Shown here: positions 41,791-52,448 of the stretch, piece after piece
Layout of the letters: the number at the start of each line of letters is the position of its first letter
Numbering within the stretch: the first letter of the stretch is position 1
Source: Escherichia phage vB_EcoM_KWBSE43-6
DNA length: 64,000 bases
Sequence record: NC_048186.1
Direction: 5' to 3' (one strand)
Translations under genes and position numbers: made by a program
Notes under the pieces: model-generated
The model's input: the letters and a program-made list of their open reading frames with translations, nothing else
Told to the model about the DNA's origin: nothing
Database searches by the model: none

Positions 41791-42459
41791 ATGCAAGAAA
41801 TTACTCTGTCGGAACGCACTCTGCAACTTCTGGCTAACTTTGAAACCATCTGCCCGTCTATCGTCCTGACTCCTGGCAAAAAGCTGCGTACCGTAAATGA
41901 CGCATCGACGGTTATCGCCATCGCCGATATCGACGAAGACTTCCCGTTCGAATTCCCGATCCTCGATCTAACCAAGCTGCTGGCCATCCAGCGCCTGCCG
42001 AGTTTCAAGAGCGGTAAGATCGAAATGTACGAAGATCACGTGCTGCTCAAAGGCGAAAACTCTCAACTGCAATTCTGGCGCTCGGCCAAAGAACTGACGA
42101 CTGTTCCGGCTGATACCATTGATCTGCCGTCGGTTGATTTCGAAGCAACTGTGTCGCCGGAAAAAATGAAAGAGCTGATCCGCGCGTGTTCTACCCTGGG
42201 CCACAAAACTGTCCGTATGGTCGCCAGCGGCGGCAAAACCCGTCTGGTGGGTACTACTCCGGCAATCGACAATTCCAACGATTACACCGTTGAATTGGGC
42301 GAAACTGCGCTGGGTGATTTCTCCATGCCGATCGACGTTGTCAACCTGAAAATGATCGAAGGCAACTATACTATCCGCGCCTGCACTGAAATGCAGCTGG
42401 TCAATTTCCAATCGGTCGACGGCACCATCAACTATTACGTCGGCATGCAGCTGGAATAA
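41791..42459 (+). CDS. gp45: sliding clamp gp45
   Basis: N-terminus TLQLLANFETICPSIVLTPGK parallels T4 gp45; followed by clamp loader genes. Confidence 0.8.
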   Translation: MQEITLSERTLQLLANFETICPSIVLTPGKKLRTVNDASTVIAIADIDEDFPFEFPILDLTKLLAIQRLPSFKSGKIEMYEDHVLLKGENSQLQFWRSAKELTTVPADTIDLPSVDFEATVSPEKMKELIRACSTLGHKTVRMVASGGKTRLVGTTPAIDNSNDYTVELGETALGDFSMPIDVVNLKMIEGNYTIRACTEMQLVNFQSVDGTINYYVGMQLE

Positions 42460-42544: not shown

Positions 42545-43534
42545 ATGTCTAATATCACAATCGTTGGTGACCAATACGCATGGGAAAACAAATATCGCCC
42601 GGACAATCTGGACGAAATCGTTCTCCCCCAGGACGTCCGTGCCAAGATCCATGGCTATATCACTGGTGGCAATGGCAACATCCCGTCAATGCTGTTCTAC
42701 TCACCGAAACCGGGTACTGGTAAGACCACGACTGCTCTGGCGGTTTGTAATGAAATCGGCTGCGTCAAGCCGCTGATGATCAACGCATCCCTGGACAACA
42801 ACATCGACACCATCCGCGACAAAGTTATCCAGTATTCGACTGGCGTCAGCGTATATGGCGGACGGAAAGTCGTTATCCTGGATGAAGCCGAGCGCCTGTC
42901 TATGGCCGCTCAGGAATCGTTGAAAGGTATTATCGAGAAGGTGAGCAAAAACTGCTCGTTTATCCTCACCACCAACTCGAAATCCCGTCTGAACGAACCG
43001 CTGGTTTCCCGCTGCCGTGAAATCGACTTCATCTGGACCGACAAAGAAGCACATGAAGTGCAGCTACAGTTCATGCGGCGCTGTGCTGAAATCCTTGCTG
43101 CTGAAAACGTCGAAGTCGATCTGAAAGTCCTCGGCCGGATCATTCCTCAGTTCTTCCCGGACAACCGTAAGATCATGGGCATCTTGCAAGACAATGCCTC
43201 CACCTACGGAAAAATTGATGAACGCGCTTTGGCCGTCGTCAACGCAGGCGGTATGCGCCAGCTGGTTGAAGAGATGAAGAAAAACAACTGGGACGGCGTT
43301 CGCCAATGGGTGACTGATAATCAGAACTACATCGGCGATGATTTCTATTCCCGTTTCTTCCATTTCTGTGTGCCGCAGGATAAGGACAAGCCACGGGCTA
43401 TCGAAACGACTAGCATCGTCGATATGGTCGCTCTCTGCGGTCAGGCGCAGATTGAACACAGACAGGCTGGTGACGTTTGGCTGCATGCGGTTTATTTCCT
43501 GACCAACGTCATGCTCAACATTAAGTGGAGCTGA
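42545..43534 (+). CDS. gp44: clamp loader large subunit gp44 (AAA+)
   Basis: WENKYRP, Walker A SPKPGTGKTT, Walker B ILDEAER, sensor SRCREIDF; matches T4 gp44. Confidence 0.9.
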   Translation: MSNITIVGDQYAWENKYRPDNLDEIVLPQDVRAKIHGYITGGNGNIPSMLFYSPKPGTGKTTTALAVCNEIGCVKPLMINASLDNNIDTIRDKVIQYSTGVSVYGGRKVVILDEAERLSMAAQESLKGIIEKVSKNCSFILTTNSKSRLNEPLVSRCREIDFIWTDKEAHEVQLQFMRRCAEILAAENVEVDLKVLGRIIPQFFPDNRKIMGILQDNASTYGKIDERALAVVNAGGMRQLVEEMKKNNWDGVRQWVTDNQNYIGDDFYSRFFHFCVPQDKDKPRAIETTSIVDMVALCGQAQIEHRQAGDVWLHAVYFLTNVMLNIKWS

Positions 43535-43536
43535 TT

Positions 43537-43959
43537 ATGGCCGCTCCGTCTTTGTTCGATTTCCTGGGTGCGTTGAACAACACCAAAGAGAACCTCTTGC
43601 AAACGGACGACCCTGATGTTCGTAAGGCTTTTGATCCGTTTATGACCCGGCGCGGGCTGGCACAGAACAAAGATACTCTTGTCATCGCCCAGCGAATGAA
43701 TTTGCTTCACAAGGTCACGCCGTGGATGCAATGGAATATGGCATTCCATTCTATCCCGGCGCGTAAGCGGTATGGGAAGTGGGCCAAAAAAGGTCCGCTC
43801 GACCCTGATATTCAGATGTTGTCTGAGTATTATTACATCAGCCATGAAAAGGCATCAGAGTATCTCAAATTTCTTCCAAAAGAAGCACTGGCCGAGATCA
43901 GGAAGAAAGTTGAGTTGTCTAACAGCAACGAGAAAGCGAAGCCGCGCAAGGCTAAGTAG
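43537..43959 (+). CDS. gp62: clamp loader small subunit gp62-like
   Basis: RYGKWAK motif and position directly after gp44. Confidence 0.7.
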   Translation: MAAPSLFDFLGALNNTKENLLQTDDPDVRKAFDPFMTRRGLAQNKDTLVIAQRMNLLHKVTPWMQWNMAFHSIPARKRYGKWAKKGPLDPDIQMLSEYYYISHEKASEYLKFLPKEALAEIRKKVELSNSNEKAKPRKAK

Positions 43960-43987
43960 TTAAAATCATTAATGAAGGAGTTTGGTC

Positions 43988-44452
43988 ATGGCGCGCAATA
44001 CGCTCGACATCTTAAAACTGACTGCGGTCGACGATGAGGCCAGCATCGTCGATTGTATGGTCGAAGTTGAACTGAACCAAGATAAACCGGGAATTTTCCT
44101 GGGTATCAAGGAAACACTGAGCCGAATCGGGGTTAATACTCGCCAAGAGCCTGAAACCCTGTATCAGACCTGCCATATCCTCCACAAATCTGGCAAGTAT
44201 TTTATCGTCCATTTCAAGCATCTGTTTATGCTGGATGGGCATTACAACGGCTTTCAGCGTGAAGATGTCCTGCGTATGAATCGCATCATTCGTCTTCTGG
44301 AGCAGTGGAAGATGATTAAGGTTCTGCATCCGGAACAAGTAACCGAATGCGCCGACATGTCCCGTATCAAAGTTGTGAAACACGATCAGATCGCTGATTG
44401 GAAACTGGTTCCCAAATATATCATTCGCCCATCTCGGGCCAAAAGCGAATAA
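43988..44452 (+). CDS. regA: translational repressor RegA
   Basis: LYQTCHILHKSGKYFIVHFKHLFMLDG and DWKLVPKYIIR match T4 RegA; AAGGAG SD. Confidence 0.75.
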   Translation: MARNTLDILKLTAVDDEASIVDCMVEVELNQDKPGIFLGIKETLSRIGVNTRQEPETLYQTCHILHKSGKYFIVHFKHLFMLDGHYNGFQREDVLRMNRIIRLLEQWKMIKVLHPEQVTECADMSRIKVVKHDQIADWKLVPKYIIRPSRAKSE

Positions 44453-44468
44453 CTGGAGTCGCTATATT

Positions 44469-45335
44469 ATGACAACTACATTTAGTAAGAACGTGAGACT
44501 GAATCTGGCTTTTGGTAATGCTAAAGGGGACGTAACCGCCCCCGACTTTAGCAAAATTCGCAATCAGGCGAAACTCGTTCTGGAAGAAACCCGCGAACTC
44601 CTGGAAGCGGCGTATTTCGATCATCAAGTAGTTCTGACATTGGAACTTAATCCTCGGGAAAGTGAAACGCCGACCACTACCGAAGATCTGATGAAAGCCA
44701 TCATGGATGCGCAGGGTGATATCACCACAGTCAACGACGGCGTAGCTCATATTGCCGGTTTCGACGGTGATGAATGCCTGCAACGTGTCTTTGCTTCCAA
44801 CATGAGCAAGTTCATCCGTTCTGAAGATGAAGTCGGCCCGGCGCTGGACTACTACTATTCCCGTGGTTTCCCGGAAGGCCAGCTGCGCGTTGAAGGCGAA
44901 TTCCCCCAGGCATGCATCAAGGTTAATGAAACCGTGATGTGGAAAGGTAAAGAATATCCGGCTGGCAAATTCCTGAAGAACATGGCGGTCTTCCAGGAAC
45001 CGGATTTCAGTGACATGTTGACGGATAGCCCCAAACAACAGATCAAAACCATCATCGCTACCCAAGCGGTTGAAGAAGGTAAATTACATGTTGATCATAC
45101 AAACGGCGTCGCGTATTTCCATTTGAAAGATTTTCAGGCATTCCTTTTAGCCCAATCTGAAACTTTTTCGCACAGCGTTGTTGCAAACAAAGGCCATATC
45201 GAAAGTTATGTCCCTGTCTTTCAAGTCGTGGACGAAGAACATCCGCCACTGAAAGGCGTTTGGGCAGCGAATGTCCGTATGTTTGTGTACTCCCCGTACA
45301 ATCCGGAAATTACACAGCTGACCCGAATCGATTAA
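44469..45335 (+). CDS. MazG-like all-alpha NTP pyrophosphohydrolase domain protein, 288 aa
   Basis: EExxELxEA (LVLEETRELLEAA) and downstream EDL...DAQGD acidic motif in N-terminal 110 aa; C-terminal 170 aa unassigned. Confidence 0.55.
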   Translation: MTTTFSKNVRLNLAFGNAKGDVTAPDFSKIRNQAKLVLEETRELLEAAYFDHQVVLTLELNPRESETPTTTEDLMKAIMDAQGDITTVNDGVAHIAGFDGDECLQRVFASNMSKFIRSEDEVGPALDYYYSRGFPEGQLRVEGEFPQACIKVNETVMWKGKEYPAGKFLKNMAVFQEPDFSDMLTDSPKQQIKTIIATQAVEEGKLHVDHTNGVAYFHLKDFQAFLLAQSETFSHSVVANKGHIESYVPVFQVVDEEHPPLKGVWAANVRMFVYSPYNPEITQLTRID

Positions 45336-45359
45336 GGCTATCAGGGTTTCAATATACAG

Positions 45360-45386
45360 CAGAGGCTATAATGGCCTCTGTTTTTG
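45360..45386 (+). terminator. rho-independent terminator
   Basis: CAGAGGC tataatg GCCTCTG TTTTT. Confidence 0.6.
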
Positions 45387-45406
45387 TATTCTAAGAAGAG
45401 GATACC

Positions 45407-46624
45407 ATGAAAGATAAACAGTCAGACATCCAATATTGCGGTGTCCGTGAAGATAAAATCAAATCAGCTGAACCAATTCTCAGTCCTTTCCATCGTAAGC
45501 TGTCCTATGATTGGATGGATGAACGTTACAAAATCCACGTGAGAAAGGACGTCCAGCGCCTTCCTTCTCCCTGGACAGAAAACGAGATACTACGGCAGGT
45601 CAAGTTCTGTAACGTCCGGAGAGAGCACGACAGGCAGTCTCAGCATCTTATCCGCAATATTGTCGAGAACAACAACCTGTCTCTGGCCGACAAGATGTTC
45701 AACTGCCTTCTGTTTCGTATGTTCAACATGTGGGATCCTATCGAACATGTTCTAGAAGGCCCGGTCTCCATCAATGATTTCCGTAATATCAATTTGGATC
45801 GAACTCGTGAACGGTTTGCGGACTTTGATAAAAAAGGCGGCGTGACATTCACCAATGCTTTCAACACAGGCGGTCTAAAGCAATGTTTGGCCTTCCCTGA
45901 ACTGGCAGTGACTGGAAAGCCCGCCAGCCCCAGCAAAATGATGGTGAAAGTCTTCGAGAACGAAGGACCGATGAAGTTTTATGTCGGTGAAATGAAATAC
46001 AAAGATGCCAAGTCTTTGGCGGAAGATAATCCAGGGTCAGTAACAATCGAAGGGTGGGAACCGCATATGGGGATGCGTGTTGTCCGGTTCCTGAAATCGT
46101 TTGTTACCCATAACCCTCATTTCTTCCATTCATTGTTGGGGTTCAATTCACCGCTATCTGTTTATGAAGAACTCCTTAACAAAGTTGAAGGCCTCGGACC
46201 ATTCTTGGCATATCAGGTTTGGGTTGACTTCACGTACAACCCGGATTATCCGTTTAGTGAAAACCATTTCACTATCGCCGGGCCGGGGTGCCGCGCCGGG
46301 ATTGATCTGTTGTTCCTGGATAAAGACGGGATGACACATGAAGAATGTATCTTCTGGCTGCGTGACAATCAGGATGATGTGTATCGGCAATATGGTTATG
46401 AACGTGATGCGTTTTGGTCAGCAGAAGAGCCGTATGACCGTTGTATGAACGTCATGCAGCTGGAAAACATGTTCTGCGAGCTGAGCAAATACACCCGTTG
46501 TGTTGAGGCTGTCATGCGCGGCGAGAAACCTCGAGGCAAGGTTGGATACAATGGCGGGGAAGTGTATACCGCTCCTAAGACCCAAGTCCGCTCTATCAAC
46601 CTCCTAGAAAGGATGAAGAAATGA
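45407..46624 (+). CDS. hypothetical protein, 405 aa
   Basis: ATG 45407 with GAGGA upstream; no motif recognised by eye. Confidence 0.6.
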   Translation: MKDKQSDIQYCGVREDKIKSAEPILSPFHRKLSYDWMDERYKIHVRKDVQRLPSPWTENEILRQVKFCNVRREHDRQSQHLIRNIVENNNLSLADKMFNCLLFRMFNMWDPIEHVLEGPVSINDFRNINLDRTRERFADFDKKGGVTFTNAFNTGGLKQCLAFPELAVTGKPASPSKMMVKVFENEGPMKFYVGEMKYKDAKSLAEDNPGSVTIEGWEPHMGMRVVRFLKSFVTHNPHFFHSLLGFNSPLSVYEELLNKVEGLGPFLAYQVWVDFTYNPDYPFSENHFTIAGPGCRAGIDLLFLDKDGMTHEECIFWLRDNQDDVYRQYGYERDAFWSAEEPYDRCMNVMQLENMFCELSKYTRCVEAVMRGEKPRGKVGYNGGEVYTAPKTQVRSINLLERMKK

Positions 46625-47028
46625 AACCTGTGAAGTGCCACCGTTCTTGGAAAGTATGCCCGGCATGTTCAAGCCGGGCCACAAAGATGATTGAATTTGA
46701 GACTGGCTTGTATCGTTGTCAGATCTGCTTTCATCGTTATTCGGATCCAGCTGGTCGTTCTTTGGTTGATAAGAAGTACAAATTCAAAATATTGTTGGGG
46801 ACTTCTGAACAATATGAATACACTGTGGTGGGCGACTCTCTTTCTCAGATTAATCTTCATGTCCTGGAAAAGATTTCCCATTATGATAAAAATTGTGAAC
46901 GTCCTGTGCGAGTTGTCAAAACTCCAAAGGGATACCCGGAAGGCACTCGCAGTGTTGTCGTGGCTGGATACACAAGATTTGACGGTAAGAGATTCAGAAG
47001 TATCCGAATTAATATGATCCCGGTTTAA
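46621..47028 (+). CDS. zinc-ribbon protein, 135 aa
   Basis: ATGA overlap with upstream gene; CPAC-x17-CQIC cysteine pairs near N-terminus. Confidence 0.55.
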   Translation: MKPVKCHRSWKVCPACSSRATKMIEFETGLYRCQICFHRYSDPAGRSLVDKKYKFKILLGTSEQYEYTVVGDSLSQINLHVLEKISHYDKNCERPVRVVKTPKGYPEGTRSVVVAGYTRFDGKRFRSIRINMIPV

Positions 47029-47029
47029 A

Positions 47030-47058
47030 GTTTTCAATAACTGTAATCGGGGTATATT
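47030..47058 (+). promoter_or_regulatory. early-promoter-like element (-35 GTTTTC, 17 bp, -10 TATATT)
   Basis: TTCAATA-N9-GGGGTATATT; 66 nt upstream of ATG 47124. Confidence 0.35.
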
Positions 47059-47123
47059 GACCTCACTTTAACGAAGCGCCTCAACCGGGGCGCACATTTG
47101 AACTGAAACAGGAAGACTATATC

Positions 47124-49160
47124 ATGTCAGATTTTAAACCCTTCGCAGTTGCTGTAAAGAATCAAATCACCGCGATGTCCAGCAATGGCCTGTACATGAC
47201 TTCGGTTGACAAAGACGCCCTGTGGGATCTGTACCTGTCATCTTTCCCGGAAGGCACGAACAACATCTACCGCGAGCGCACTGAGCACGATTGCACCTGC
47301 TGCAAGCAATTCATCCGTAACATCGGCGGCGTCGTATCGATTGACGCTGATCTGAACCTGGTTACTGTGTGGGACAGCGTCAATCTGGGTAACGAATACG
47401 AAGTGGTGGCGGCAGCGCTGGCCAAATATGTCAAGCAGCACAACATCGTCGGCGTTTACTTCAACGATTCAGCTAAGGTGAGCGTAGAAAGCAACCACGA
47501 AATGGGTGAAAACGGTAAAGTCCGCACCTACGACCATTTCCACGCCGTTCTGAACAATAAATTCGTCCTGCGCGGCGAAGATATCGCCTCCACCAAAGGC
47601 GAAATTTCCCAATCCATTGAAGTATTTGAGCGCAGCATGCGTGAGCTGACTATGGAATCGGCTGAAATCGTCCTGGAACTGATCGATCAGAATTCTCTGT
47701 ATCGCGGCGAAGAGCATCGTTCGGCTGTACAAAGTTTTGTGCAGAGCAAAACCGAATACATGAAAATTCGCTCCGATCTGAAACAACTTTGGGCCTGGCG
47801 AACTGGTTGGTTGTCTAAAAACCATAAGCCGTTCGGCATCCGCAATACTGTCATCGGCACCCTGCTGACCGATCTTTCTGACGGCGTTGAAATGGAAAAG
47901 GCGGTGAAATCCTTTGAAACCAAAGTCGCTCCGACCAACTACCGCCGCCCGACTGCCCTGGTCACCAAAGGTATGATCGAAAAGGCGCAGAAAACGGTTG
48001 CCGAACTCGGCCTGACTGAATCTTTGGGTCGCCGCTATGCGAAGTATGAAGACCTGACGATCAACAACGTGCTGTTCGCCGATATCGATGCGCGGAAAGC
48101 TATGGATCCGTTCGATCAATTGGCGCAGGAAGTCAAAGTGACTGAAAAGTCGCTGGGTAAAATTGAAGAGATCAGCGTCGATGATTTCATCAAAAACGTT
48201 ATCCCGAAAGCGCGTTCCATGGAAGTGATGTTTGAAGGACGTCATACCGCCAACCTGATGTCTCTGGTCGCACCGGAAACTCAAGGCGCTCCGAACCTGT
48301 TCAAATGGGGTAATAATTTCTCCTGGTCCTACAACGGTGAAGTTGCTGATTCCATCAAAGAGCGCGTGAAAGCCGCTGGTGGTAACGTTGATTCATTCCT
48401 GCGCATTTCGCTGGCCTGGTTCAACAATGACGACCTGGACCTGCACATGTACACTCCGACGAACGAACACATTTATTTCTCTCGCGGTTGCCGCCGTTCT
48501 TACCATACTGGTGGTGAGTTGGATATTGACATGAACGGTATGGATGGGATCAACAAAGAGCGTAAACCGGTTGAGAACATCTTCTTCAAAGACAAGAACA
48601 TGCTGCGTGATGGCGTGTACCGTTTCATCGTCGACAACTATGCCCAGCGTGAAACCATCGACACCGGGTTCATCGTTGAGGTGGAATATGAAGGCGACCT
48701 GAAACGTTTCTCCTGTGAAAAAGGTCTGAAGAATAAACAGCAGATGACCGTCATTGAACTGCGCGTCAAAGACAAAAAGGTTGTTGAAATTCAGTCTTCC
48801 CTGGTGCCGACAACTGGCGTGGAAACTGAAATTTGGGGTATCCGTACCCAGAATTTCCAGAAGGTGCAACTGGTCCTGAATTCTCCTAACCACTGGGACG
48901 GTGAACAGACCGGAAACCGACATCTGTTCTTTATCCTGGAAGGTTGTATCAACCCGGCCAGCACTCGCGGCTTCTACAATGAATATCTGAAGCCGGAATT
49001 GGCACCGCATGGCAAGGTTTTTGAAATGTTGGGCGCTAAAATGAGAGCAGAACCGAGTGATAAGCAACTCAGCGGCCTGGGCTTCTCTTCCACTCAGCGC
49101 AATTATGTCCTGGTGAAGGTAAGCGGTTCATTTAATCGTGTAGTCAAAGTCGTTTTTTAA
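47124..49160 (+). CDS. hypothetical protein, 678 aa
   Basis: Long ORF with good start context; HDCTCCKQF cysteine cluster near N-terminus; no Walker motifs. Confidence 0.6.
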   Translation: MSDFKPFAVAVKNQITAMSSNGLYMTSVDKDALWDLYLSSFPEGTNNIYRERTEHDCTCCKQFIRNIGGVVSIDADLNLVTVWDSVNLGNEYEVVAAALAKYVKQHNIVGVYFNDSAKVSVESNHEMGENGKVRTYDHFHAVLNNKFVLRGEDIASTKGEISQSIEVFERSMRELTMESAEIVLELIDQNSLYRGEEHRSAVQSFVQSKTEYMKIRSDLKQLWAWRTGWLSKNHKPFGIRNTVIGTLLTDLSDGVEMEKAVKSFETKVAPTNYRRPTALVTKGMIEKAQKTVAELGLTESLGRRYAKYEDLTINNVLFADIDARKAMDPFDQLAQEVKVTEKSLGKIEEISVDDFIKNVIPKARSMEVMFEGRHTANLMSLVAPETQGAPNLFKWGNNFSWSYNGEVADSIKERVKAAGGNVDSFLRISLAWFNNDDLDLHMYTPTNEHIYFSRGCRRSYHTGGELDIDMNGMDGINKERKPVENIFFKDKNMLRDGVYRFIVDNYAQRETIDTGFIVEVEYEGDLKRFSCEKGLKNKQQMTVIELRVKDKKVVEIQSSLVPTTGVETEIWGIRTQNFQKVQLVLNSPNHWDGEQTGNRHLFFILEGCINPASTRGFYNEYLKPELAPHGKVFEMLGAKMRAEPSDKQLSGLGFSSTQRNYVLVKVSGSFNRVVKVVF

Positions 49161-49196: not shown

Positions 49197-49568
49197 ATGT
49201 TTGATAAAGCAACCCGTCTGAAACTGCGTTTCAACTCCAACAAAGGACAGCTGTCCGTTGAGCAGGTGTGGGATCTGAGCCTGACTGCTCTGAACGAAAT
49301 GGCGAAAGGTCTGAGCCGCGAACTGAAAGCTGCTGCGGTCGACGATGAAGATTTCATCGGCAACAATACATCCGTCGACTCTCAGCTGCAACTGCGCTTT
49401 GACATCGTCAAAAGCATCATCAGCACCAAGCTGAAAGAGCGCGATGACAGCCTGTCCGCTGCAGAAAAACGTGAGCACAACCAGGCCATCCTGGAACTCA
49501 TCAAGAAGAAACAGCAGGAAGAGCTGGCGGGTAAATCTGTTGAAGAACTGCAAGCCCTGCTGAAATAA
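49197..49568 (+). CDS. hypothetical protein, 123 aa
   Basis: ATG 49197 after GAGGA. Confidence 0.5.
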   Translation: MFDKATRLKLRFNSNKGQLSVEQVWDLSLTALNEMAKGLSRELKAAAVDDEDFIGNNTSVDSQLQLRFDIVKSIISTKLKERDDSLSAAEKREHNQAILELIKKKQQEELAGKSVEELQALLK

Positions 49569-49593
49569 ATCCGCTGCCTTTGGCGCGATAATG

Positions 49594-49620
49594 AACCCCG
49601 CCATGTGCGGGGTTTGTTGT
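49594..49620 (+). terminator. rho-independent terminator (same hairpin as 31785)
   Basis: ACCCCGCCATGTGCGGGGTTT identical to 31786-31806. Confidence 0.6.
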
Positions 49621-49694
49621 ATCCATCAGCAATAAAGCCTCATTCAATATACGTGGGCATATAATATCCTAGTGTTAAACAGTGGAGAAGATTT

Positions 49695-50051
49695 ATGTCG
49701 GTCAAAATGAAAGGTGCCGAGTTTAAAGCATACTACGATGACTCAGAGTATTGGGTTCAGGATGCTTGGCATGATTATCACAACATAAAGGTTAATGGCG
49801 AATATATCGACGATATTGAAACTGAGAATATTCCCGACGAGGCTGATGTGGTTATTGAGTCGGGGATAGTTTATATTCCCATCAGAAGTGAATCCGGTTA
49901 TGAAGAAAAAGAAGTCCAACTGGTCACTCACATCAAGAACTGGCGCAAACAGCAGAAATTTTCTACTATTGTCGTGGTAGTTGAAAAAGACAAAGCTGAA
50001 GAAATTATAGCCTCAATTAAAACGATACCTGGCGTCAATACCGTCAAGTGA
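49695..50051 (+). CDS. hypothetical protein, 118 aa
   Basis: ATG 49695 after GGAGAAG; perfect TATAAT at 49660. Confidence 0.5.
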   Translation: MSVKMKGAEFKAYYDDSEYWVQDAWHDYHNIKVNGEYIDDIETENIPDEADVVIESGIVYIPIRSESGYEEKEVQLVTHIKNWRKQQKFSTIVVVVEKDKAEEIIASIKTIPGVNTVK

Positions 50052-50058
50052 GGCGATA

Positions 50059-50202
50059 ATGGATTCCTGTCTATTAGATCCCGAGAACGTTCTTGTGGTT
50101 GAAATTGAAAACAACAAGCCGTTCATTTTGAAAATGTTGGAGAAGGATAATAATCCTGAAACCAATCCTAAACTATCCCAAAAGGGGAATAACGATGATT
50201 GA
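50059..50202 (+). CDS. small protein, 47 aa
   Basis: ATG 50059 after GAGG; not in ORF track; overlaps next gene start. Confidence 0.3.
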   Translation: MDSCLLDPENVLVVEIENNKPFILKMLEKDNNPETNPKLSQKGNNDD

Positions 50203-52448
50203 ATCATTAGAATTTAAGAATGCCACACAGACGGTCGCTCCTTCCAATCACGTCATCGTCGTTGACATTTCTTATTCCATGTGTTATGCGCTGCCGAAAC
50301 TGCGCCAGCACCTGAAAGAAAACCTGCCCTCCCTGGTTAAGCCGGAAGACACCGTCAGTATTCTGTACTTCTCTTCTCGTGGCGACTTCGGTACTGTGTT
50401 CGCTGGGCGCCAGGTCACCAACGCATCTGACCTGAGTGAGCTGGGTAAACTGATCGATCGCTTCCTGCAACCAACTGGCTGCACCGGATTTGTTGAGCCG
50501 CTCAAGCTGGCTATCGAAACCGCCAACGATCTGAAAAAGTCCGGCGTCATCAATTCCCTGGTGTTCATGACCGACGGTTATGACAACTGCTGGCGTTCCA
50601 GTGAAATTCTCGCGGTCGCAGAGCAGCTGCCAAAGGCGTACGACAACATCACGCTGATCGAATACGGCTGGAACTGCAACCGGGAACTGCTGCAGAAAAT
50701 GGCAGAGTGCTCTGGTGCCACCCATGTATTCGCCGAAGGCCAGGAAGAATATCAGATCGAACTGGAAACAGCGATGGTTTCTGTCGCTCCGCGCGTTCGC
50801 GTTGATTTCAGTATCATCTATTCCTATGCCGTTTATATCGAAAACGGGATTCCGACCATCCTGGCCGCCCAGTCTGATGAAGACCATCCTATCAATTACG
50901 TCAACATCCCTGAGAGCGTCTCTAAGCTGTGGGTTGTTGATCCTGATATGATCGACCAACTGGATAACCTGGCGGACGTTGAAGCGGCATATGTGCTGGC
51001 TCTCTTTGGCGTGCATACTATGGATGCCGACCTGGTGTGGGCCGCGCTGAAAAAGACTGGCGATGTGCGCTTCATTAAACAGTACACCAACTGCTTCACC
51101 AAGCAGGATTATTCCAACATCAAAACTGACATCACAGCAGCGATTGTAGACCCGGCGCTGCGCGGTGTGGACGGTATCGATTACAATCTGGTGCCGCCGG
51201 AAGACGCAACTACTGTTGTTGATGTTCTGACTTACCTGGCGGGAGCAGATGCACAACTGGTTGTTGACCATCCCCTGTTCTCTTACAAGCGGATCGGTCG
51301 CGGTACGGTACAAAAAGCCGACGATACCGAAGACAAGCTGGCGGCAGAAATTGCCGAAGCCAAATCTAAAGAAGAGCGTAAAGCGCTGGCCCTGAAACTG
51401 GCTGAGCACGAAGACTGGACTCCTGTGTTTGAGCCGGTGAAAGGCGCGGGCGTTCCCATCAGCAATCTGGTTTACAACTCGGCCCGCCCGAACATCAGTC
51501 TGCAGACTGTGCAAAACGGGACCGTCATCATCCCGAAGTTCGCACAAAAGAAATACGATCTGCCTGAATCTATTGATACGTGGCAGTGGAAGAACTACAC
51601 CAAAGAAATACGATCTGCCTGAATCTATTGATACGTGGCAGTGGAAGAACTACACCATCGTCAAAGACGGTATCATCCATATGAAGACCCTTCCTGTGGT
51701 CTGCTCGGTGGAAACCGTATCTGAACTGGTTAGCAAAGGCGTTGAAGTTTACGGCGGGCCGGAAGTGTTCATCGTAAATCTGGGCAGCGTTCCTCTGGTT
51801 AACCGCGCGATGGTTAAGAACATCAGCGCCGCGCAGTTCTTTGCTGACCACGTCCGTCTGGAATCCCTGAAAGCCAAGCAGAAGGTTCTCAAATATTTCC
51901 GTGACGAACTGGTTGGGAAAGGTAATGCCGTGGGCCTGGCAGGCAAATACGGCTTTGAAGCGGCTGAGTTTTTGTCTGCGAATGGCATCCGCGATTACGG
52001 CTTCTCTCCGAAGACCGCTTCGGTTGAGTCTACTGATTTCTACATGAGCCGCGAACTCAATGTGAAGATCAAAGGCGCTTCCTCGCTGCCGTCAATTGCC
52101 GCCGTTCTGAAGAAACAGGCCGACAACAAAAAACTGAACGCAGCTGATCAGCTGATCGCTAATGCGCTGGCAGAATACAACGCCTTTGTCAAATCTCCGG
52201 CGGTGACTGCAGTTCCGGAAGCAACGCAGGCCAAGATCATTGAATCTTGGATCAGTGATGCTGCCAAGGCTGCTATCACCCAAGTCCGTGAGCTGAACAA
52301 GACCCTGTCCAAATCTCTGTATGCCATCGTTGCAGGCCATGGCTGGTTCACCGACCTGGATCTGGAAGAGTCCACCATGGAAGTGGAAGTTGATGGCGTC
52401 AAATACACCGTCAGTGCAGTCCTGGAAGAGAAAGAGATCAAAATCTAA
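50195..52448 (+). pseudogene. vWA-domain protein gene split into two ORFs (50195-51622, 51573-52448) by a 55-bp tandem duplication
   Basis: N-terminal vWA/MIDAS motifs (VVVDISYSM, FMTDG); removing one repeat copy restores a single ORF of about 732 aa with KKYDLPESIDTWQWKNYT read once. Confidence 0.6.
51547..51656. repeat. perfect 55-bp direct tandem duplication (2 copies)
   Basis: AAAGAAATACGATCTGCCTGAATCTATTGATACGTGGCAGTGGAAGAACTACACC at 51547-51601 and 51602-51656; 55 is not a multiple of 3. Confidence 0.9.

Follow-up and report, generated by a model that had tools for sequence, protein, structure and literature searches.

The question raised downstream of regA

What takes the place of the DNA polymerase gene downstream of regA in Escherichia phage vB_EcoM_KWBSE43-6 (NC_048186.1), and what do the genes found there do? 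In T4, gene 43, encoding the DNA polymerase, comes after regA. In the window, i.e., the 64-kb stretch of phage DNA that was analysed, regA is followed by genes for a MazG-like protein of 288 amino acid residues (aa), a 405-aa protein, and a 135-aa zinc-ribbon protein, and no DNA polymerase gene is found within the 64 kb. A sequence-only reading of the stretch had rightly pointed to this departure from T4 and had proposed that the three genes form a nucleotide-pool or DNA-modification block. The proposal holds: the 405-aa protein is a PF18723 protein and the orthologue of phage ViI gp160. On balance, we favor the view that the block belongs to the thymidine-hypermodification/nucleotide-pool set of the Ackermannviridae. 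The 405-aa protein would act catalytically on 5-phosphomethyl-2′-deoxyuridine (5-PmdU), the 288-aa protein would be a (deoxy)nucleoside triphosphate ((d)NTP) pyrophosphohydrolase, and the zinc-ribbon protein would be a dispensable accessory.

The positions of the open reading frames (ORFs) are those of the ORF table and refer to the whole stretch. The table places the three genes, as had been reported, at 44469–45335 (288 aa), 45407–46624 (405 aa), and 46621–47028 (135 aa), all on the + strand. Homologues are found in 337, 415, and 79 phage records, respectively, and so all three ORFs are real genes. In ViI and in the relative Zahir, the DNA polymerase gene is located ~100 kb off, adjoining one kinase gene and the gene for Pplase2. 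The T4 regA/polymerase synteny has no bearing on what the genes do.

The 405-aa protein is a clade 1 (PF18723) protein

The sequence-only reading could not place the 405-aa protein and called for a profile search against DNA-modification families. That search gives a full-length match to PF18723 (Pfam ‘HMUDK_hel, 5-hmdU DNA kinase, helical domain’), with a score of 271.4 bits against a cut-off of 25 and an E value of 1.1e-80. The match covers model positions 5–278 of 281 and is the sole Pfam match of the protein; PF18723 is present in all 120 homologues listed. Some GenBank records name the gene ‘aGPT-Pplase1 domain-containing protein’ or ‘alpha-glutamyl/putrescinyl thymine pyrophosphorylase clade 1’.

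The ViI gene at the same position is Vi01_130c, noted as orf00160. The orf numbers of ViI are the ‘gp’ numbers of Lee et al., as gp67 is orf00067 (YP_004327432), gp226 is orf00226, and gp243 is orf00243 (Table 1, PMC8989533). Therefore, Vi01_130c is gp160, the ‘aG/PT-PPlase1’ of PMC5889632. ViI gp160 is 67% identical to the 405-aa protein over its full length, has the same neighbours (gp45, gp44, gp62, regA, and the MazG-like gene), and is preceded by a near-identical hairpin and ribosome-binding site. Unlike the window, ViI has no zinc-ribbon gene downstream of gp160. As judged from these sequence comparisons, the 405-aa protein is a stand-alone member of aGPT-Pplase clade 1 (PF18723), orthologous to ViI gp160.

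The protein has a helix-hairpin-helix (HhH), DNA-glycosylase-like all-α fold, with the HhH near G262-L-G264 (46190–46198, + strand). A putative active site, E353...C357-E358-x-x-K361, is encoded at 46463–46489 (+ strand). Across eight PF18723 members from seven phage groups, the invariant residues are R40, F67, N69, R72, D75, R104, F266, and D274, together with G292-P-G294, G298, C357, E358, and K361. Among the aligned members, an insertion at about residues 165–220 is confined to those of the Ackermannviridae type.

The best structural match of the 405-aa protein is the catalytic transferase Pplase2. Pplase2 proteins are the amino acid:DNA transferases (AADTs; clade 2, PF18724), which include PaMx11 gp46 (PDB 8Z2M), ViI gp247, M6 gp51, and SH-Ab 15599 Pplase2. 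In PaMx11 gp46, the essential Cys and its proximal Glu lie in E243/T244/C247. The spacing of E353-N-M-F-C357 equals that of the E-T-x-x-C of the SH-Ab 15599 and D533 Pplase2 proteins, and in the model the E353–C357 stretch sits in a long C-terminal helix (residues 349–370). The differences from the AADTs are as follows. In clade 1 the invariant Glu comes after the Cys (C357-E358), and the 405-aa protein has an N-terminal extension and the insertion mentioned above. It also shows neither a PF18724 match (none at E ≤ 0.1) nor any profile-level similarity, the PF18723 alignment profile giving insignificant comparisons with ViI gp247 and SH-Ab 15599 Pplase2. The clade 1–clade 2 link is therefore structural only.

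Two other identities were considered and rejected. The Pfam name prompts ‘5-hmdU DNA kinase’, but the 405-aa protein has no P-loop kinase domain; PF18748 does not match it, whereas ViI gp67 scores 386 bits and the N-terminal half of SP10 gp186 scores 83 bits. SP10 gp186, from a Bacillus phage, shares PF18723 (2.4e-44, residues 313–598) and differs in having a fused PF18748 P-loop 5-hmdU kinase at residues 35–193, which the 405-aa protein lacks. This fusion of kinase and PF18723 explains the Pfam name. In the family of the window phage, the kinases are separate genes located elsewhere. The label ‘terminase small subunit’ rests on a phrog_800 match at 2e-4, compared with 6e-149 for phrog_2396, and the true terminase genes map elsewhere in a syntenic relative.

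PF18723 in phages with hypermodified thymidine

In ViI-like/Ackermannviridae DNA, 5-(2-aminoethoxy)methyl-2′-deoxyuridine (5-NeOmdU) is found at ~40% of T positions (PMC5889632; PMC11721090). Unmodified virion DNA, which the sequence-only reading had named as part of what would count against it, is thus contradicted for close relatives (PMC5889632). With purified enzymes, the kinase gp67 or gp243 turns 5-hydroxymethyl-2′-deoxyuridine (5-hmdU) in DNA into 5-PmdU, serine is then added by gp247 (Pplase2, now Pfam ‘ADDT’), and the pyridoxal phosphate (PLP) enzyme gp226 decarboxylates the product (PMC8989533). gp160 was in the original five-protein lysate mix making 5-NeOmdU (PMC5889632) and is absent from the purified-enzyme pathway (PMC8989533). 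According to both ViI papers, 5-hmdU is absent from virion DNA, and the positions that escape modification end up as thymine. In the literature searched, we found no paper assigning an activity to gp160 and none assigning an enzyme to the thymine-forming step.

Zahir holds orthologues of every ViI pathway gene, at 62–87% identity. Of these genes, only the PF18723 gene falls within the window: neither a 5-hmdU DNA kinase (searched with the kinase hidden Markov model, HMM) nor a dUMP hydroxymethylase is found in the 64 kb, and both are present in Zahir and ViI.

PF18723 was found in every thymidine-hypermodifying phage examined, often close to other pathway genes. In SP10, which converts 5-hmdU to glutamyl-T and T (PMC8989533), it is the C-terminal half of gp186. 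In PaMx11 it is gp50, flanked by the kinase gp49 and the hydroxymethylase gp51. In SH-Ab 15599, the dUMP hydroxymethylase gene is directly preceded by orf16 (6e-40), and in phiRSL1, ORF231 overlaps the hydroxymethylase gene. In Vibrio phage D533, the cluster runs polymerase, kinase, Pplase2, PF18723, and thyA, on to dnk and an NTP pyrophosphohydrolase (NTP-PPase). The kinase and PF18723 genes are adjacent in Microbacterium phage BouleyBill, and the Pplase2 HMM finds nothing in its complete 39-kb genome; SP10 also lacks a Pplase2 (PMC5889632). In the Ackermannviridae, the PF18723 gene is far from both kinase genes.

SH-Ab 15599, a distant member of the Ackermannviridae, offers two side observations (L005 3922–12326). 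The gene right after its regA-position gene encodes the characterised Pplase2, a diamine:DNA transferase. Its PF18723 homologue, orf16, receives no mention in the paper on the dapT pathway.

What the 405-aa protein may do

Ackermannviridae phages replicate with 5-hmdUTP, and P-loop kinases phosphorylate 5-hmdU in the DNA to 5-PmdU. Pplase2/AADT adds serine, and the PLP decarboxylase gives 5-NeOmdU at ~40% of T, the remainder ending as thymine. For the substrate of the 405-aa protein, the role of its cysteine, and all of its products, we infer the following scheme. The 405-aa protein, as a clade 1 paralogue of the AADTs, would bind DNA via its HhH and flip out 5-PmdU. Cys357 would then attack C6, the phosphate would leave, and the resulting exocyclic methylene would be captured or resolved by a partner other than serine. 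In the same scheme, the 288-aa protein would be a Mg2+-dependent NTP pyrophosphohydrolase trimming a (d)NTP pool, and the zinc-ribbon protein a dispensable accessory.

A more specific proposal, which we put forward tentatively and with a modest chance of being right, is that the PF18723 proteins (the 405-aa protein, ViI gp160, PaMx11 gp50, and the C-terminal half of SP10 gp186) are the enzyme of a second branch of the pathway, starting from 5-PmdU. The exocyclic methylene formed by Cys357 would be reduced to give canonical thymine, or would react with another nucleophile, and the PF18723 protein would decide at which positions T appears and at which a hypermodified base. M6 gp51 plus borohydride yields thymidine (PMC8989533), so reduction of the methylene to T is feasible. 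Together with the conversion of the remaining positions to T without an assigned enzyme, this means that thymine formation by PF18723 is allowed by the evidence.

The catalytic role has to be weighed against its main rival, in which PF18723 is a non-enzymatic, DNA-binding ‘helical’ accessory module that recruits the 5-hmdU DNA kinase or sets its sequence specificity. Two observations weaken the catalytic case: no sequence-profile method joins clade 1 to clade 2, and E353 is not universal in the PF18723 family. An accessory role is what the current Pfam name implies, and it is in keeping with the fusion of PF18723 to the kinase domain in SP10 and with the side-by-side kinase and PF18723 genes of PaMx11 and BouleyBill. 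Further, no in vitro reconstitution required the clade 1 protein, in vitro phosphorylation by the kinase alone reached only ~23% of the 5-hmdU, and hypermodification shows sequence specificity (PMC8989533). On the other hand, the kinase domain of SP10 gp186 works without PF18723 (PMC8989533), and the distance of the PF18723 gene from both Ackermannviridae kinases also speaks against an accessory role. The invariant Cys-Glu-x-x-Lys and the invariant polar residues N69, R72, D75, and D274 resemble an active site, and the best structural match is, again, a catalytic transferase. We consider the accessory role unlikely. The 405-aa protein has a glycosylase-like fold, but genuine DNA glycosylase activity, with removal of a base such as uracil, 5-hmU, or a host-type base in place of group transfer, is very improbable. 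Its best match, Pplase2, is not a glycosylase, the invariant Cys-Glu pair fits the chemistry of Pplase2 and not that of HhH glycosylases, and the genomic linkage to 5-hmdU kinase and hydroxymethylase is strict.

The block in itself adds little, and the finding is not novel: the genes are catalogued as ViI orthologues, gp160 has been handled experimentally, and the DNA modification of the family is published. The value lies in repairing annotation and in a sharper question about the activity of PF18723, a conserved hypermodification component with an apparent active site and, in some phages, the sole Pplase-type protein. That activity bears on the way in which phages distribute modified and unmodified thymines to escape restriction, as well as on enzymatic tools for DNA labelling.

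The MazG-like and zinc-ribbon proteins

The 288-aa protein was placed solely via its family profile and a structure model. It has the four-helix-bundle NTP-PPase fold. The MazG-like, all-α NTP pyrophosphohydrolase domain comprises residues 1–185 (44469–45023, + strand), and a β-rich C-terminal domain comprises residues 190–288 (45036–45335, + strand), with AF2-predicted strands at 194–266. Since the NTPase domain spans ~185 residues, the unassigned domain is ~100 aa rather than the 170 aa given earlier. The EExxELxEA motif reported from the sequence is indeed there, as E39-E40-T-R-E43-L-L-E46-A, and the acidic metal-binding motifs are E39-E40-x-x-E43 and D80-x-x-x-D84. In alignments of 42 and 52 homologues, E40 and D84 are invariant and D80 nearly so; E43 is invariant among the 42 and nearly invariant among the 52. 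A β extension of the domain carries invariant K167 and K170.

The protein itself has no Pfam or NCBIfam match, including to MazG (PF03819), MazG-like (PF12643), and PRA-PH (PF01503), and phmmer finds nothing for it in the PDB. Among 42 homologues, 14 match PRA-PH, four MazG-like, and two MazG. Its solved relatives are Deinococcus DR2231 (PDB 2YEU and others) and Exiguobacterium Exig_1061 (PDB 3NL9), from which it differs in its second motif, D80-A-x-x-D84 rather than E-x-x-D, and in the extra C-terminal domain. The latter is covered by three of 150 representative clusters (50% identity), which are full-length, close relatives of the Ackermannviridae type only; a profile of the ~100-aa domain gives no significant PDB or Pfam match, the best being a β-clamp domain at E 0.23.

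The sequence-only reading assigned the protein to the MazG family of T4 gp56. The MazG-like fold stands, and homology to the dUTPase_2/gp18 branch does not (hhalign E 0.3). T4 gp56, a dCTPase/dUTPase, belongs to the dimeric-dUTPase-like branch of the all-α NTP-PPase superfamily. Phage gp18 of SH-Ab 15599 (an Acinetobacter phage of the Ackermannviridae) is an experimentally defined dTTPase/dUTPase, a fusion of dNMP kinase and NTP-PPase (PMC13458397). It shares the same broad all-α superfamily with the 288-aa protein and has the sort of role that the sequence-only reading envisaged; homology within a branch was not found. The C-terminal NTP-PPase half of gp18 is homologous instead to ViI orf00063, Zahir CDS0156 (dUTPase_2 at 5e-7), and the D533 NTP-PPase (Pfam dUTPase_2). 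BLASTP and hhalign find no similarity between any of these three and the 288-aa protein, and the comparison of the 288-aa family with gp18 is likewise insignificant. The 288-aa protein is thus rejected as a homologue of the proven enzyme. The gp18-type genes adjoin thyA (dUMP hydroxymethylase) and dnk, outside the window.

As a side observation, three genes of NTP-pyrophosphohydrolase type with no obvious mutual resemblance occur in the phage family. One is the MazG-like gene of the window, which follows regA, another is the dUTPase_2 gene next to thyA and dnk, and the third, also ‘MazG-like’, is close to the topoisomerase gene. The Zahir copies of the latter two are at L010 35230–35784 and L011 12780–13358.

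The Cys4 ribbon of the 135-aa protein is encoded at 46657–46728 (+ strand) and is followed by a C-terminal domain of ~90 aa. The ribbon that had been called from the sequence is well founded: it consists of C13-P-A-C16 and C33-Q-I-C36, of which C33 and C36 are invariant among homologues and C13 and C16 nearly so, the lone exception being an N-terminally shorter sequence. The protein belongs to phrog_16119 (6e-84). It has no Pfam match, and NCBIfam gives a sub-threshold match only (transcription factor S4 ribbon, E 0.045). Against the PDB, there are weak, generic ribbon matches only, to TFIIE-alpha (E 0.02) and eL43. Among 5.8 billion proteins, it forms nine clusters at 90% identity, and every named member is from an Ackermannviridae phage. 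The gene is found in 79 records, against 278–415 for its neighbours, scattered over phages of Klebsiella, Salmonella, Escherichia, Serratia, and Dickeya. In ViI, its absence is a clean ~400-bp indel that lies between the stop codon of the PF18723 gene and a conserved block upstream of the next gene. The gene is optional and not a fixed part of the module.

How far do the two flanking genes take part in the pathway? The 288-aa protein could be its pool purger, destroying dTTP and/or dUTP so that 5-hmdUTP gets incorporated, as the sequence-only reading proposed in suggesting that the first gene removes a canonical dNTP. Its NTP pyrophosphohydrolase fold and its motifs for metal binding are what such an enzyme would have. 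The closest solved sequence relative is DR2231, a dUTP-specific MazG-like enzyme. The gene adjoins the PF18723 gene in ViI, Zahir, and XDRKpn-1, and in most matches to the region, and infections of this kind are expected to involve a dTTPase activity (PMC5977210; PMC13458397). However, the proven dTTPase/dUTPase has its homologue in another gene (ViI orf00063/Zahir CDS0156), and three separate NTP-PPase-like genes are present in a relative’s genome. Moreover, the N-terminal domain family also stands alone, among the structural genes of the N4-like phage CB1, and is missing from the modification cluster of D533. It is more likely that the dTTP/dUTP-purging enzyme of the pathway is a different gene; pool purging by the 288-aa protein is possible but doubtful, and it is not the best-supported assignment. 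With the zinc-ribbon gene, the doubt is whether it is a passenger, selfish or newly acquired, that plays no part in modification, a serious possibility even if we lean against it. Its presence in only 79 of ~280 related genomes, scattered across genera, the clean indel, and the lack of relatives outside the family are what a passenger would show. Yet it always occupies the same place, overlapping the stop codon of the PF18723 gene, and this constant position and translational coupling hint at a functional link. Its homologues keep 54–94% identity and retain the four Cys together with many residues of the C-terminal part, a sign of purifying selection, and no nuclease or transposase motif was found in the protein.

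The spacer upstream of the PF18723 gene

The three genes had been described as tightly packed. This is true of the 16-nt gap between regA and the 288-aa gene and of the ATGA at 46621–46624, read in the sequence, by which the 405-aa and 135-aa genes overlap as noted before. It is not true of the 71-nt spacer between the 288-aa and 405-aa genes, which carries a strong hairpin and then a T-run. A terminator scan places the terminator-like hairpin and T-run at 45358–45382 (+ strand), and RNA folding predicts a second, small hairpin at 45386–45405 (+ strand) that pairs the Shine-Dalgarno sequence of the 405-aa gene, GAGGA (45398–45402). The 61-nt stretch folds as two hairpins at −21.2 kcal/mol (z −4.5), and a loop in the element reads TATAAT. 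From the hairpin to the ATG (45358–45409), the sequence is identical in the window, Zahir, and XDRKpn-1. The ViI copy differs by a 2-nt gap and one substitution, both between the T-run and the Shine-Dalgarno sequence, while the flanking proteins are merely 67–76% identical between Taipeivirus phages and ViI. The element may terminate or attenuate transcription, stabilize RNA, or control translation. The regA gene lies two genes upstream of it.

Annotation, relatives, and neighbouring genes

The public-record labels of the PF18723 gene are ‘hypothetical’, ‘terminase small subunit’, ‘ABC transporter’, and, via Pfam, ‘kinase helical domain’, none of which describes it. The label ‘terminase small subunit’ is a systematic error, given to 5-hmdU DNA kinases with experimental proof of activity and by some records to the PF18723 gene too; it is seen at ViI L006 13203–13865, SP10 L015 18383–20296, PaMx11 L016 29218–29787, and Zahir L010 32848–33627. 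In one record, the labels are ‘phospholipid-lipopolysaccharide ABC transporter’ for the PF18723 gene and ‘putative diguanylate cyclase/phosphodiesterase’ for the MazG-like gene.

The region is matched by 278 phage records. It shares 97% identity with Klebsiella phage phi1_146041 and 90–97% with many further Taipeivirus (Ackermannviridae) genomes; Zahir is 94% identical to the window over the region. The 288-aa protein matches a protein recorded for vB_EcoM_KWBSE43-6 at 100% identity. Upstream of the block lie T4-like replication genes on the + strand: gp45 (41791–42459), gp44 (42545–43534), and gp62 (43525–43959). The gene for the translational repressor RegA (43982–44452; Pfam Translat_reg, 5e-33; phrog_242) closes this gp45-gp44-gp62-regA series, the order of which is also found in ViI and Zahir.

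Directly 3′ of the zinc-ribbon gene is a 678-aa ORF (47124–49160) that belongs to phrog_1735 (unknown function) and has no Pfam or NCBIfam match. It is kept across the phage family and in ViI is broken into two ORFs, Vi01_129c and Vi01_128c; the stretch upstream of it, 47052–47123, is highly conserved with ViI. Within this ORF, ARAGORN calls a 91-nt tRNA-Thr(GGT) on the − strand (47534–47624), which several GenBank relatives also annotate. Given its length and its place inside conserved coding sequence, it is probably a false positive.

Farther downstream, at 49568–49695, the NAD+ salvage genes of Zahir and XDRKpn-1, for ribose-phosphate pyrophosphokinase and nicotinamide phosphoribosyltransferase, are missing along with one hypothetical gene, and tblastn finds no match in the window. 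Their absence agrees with the reported patchy distribution in the Ackermannviridae. Finally, a 732-aa protein (VWFA-domain-containing in XDRKpn-1, hypothetical in Zahir) is represented here by ORFs of 475 and 291 aa at 50195–52448. The split is due to a frameshift near 51601, which reflects an error in sequencing or else a gene that has recently become a pseudogene, and each piece is 98–99% identical to the intact Zahir protein.

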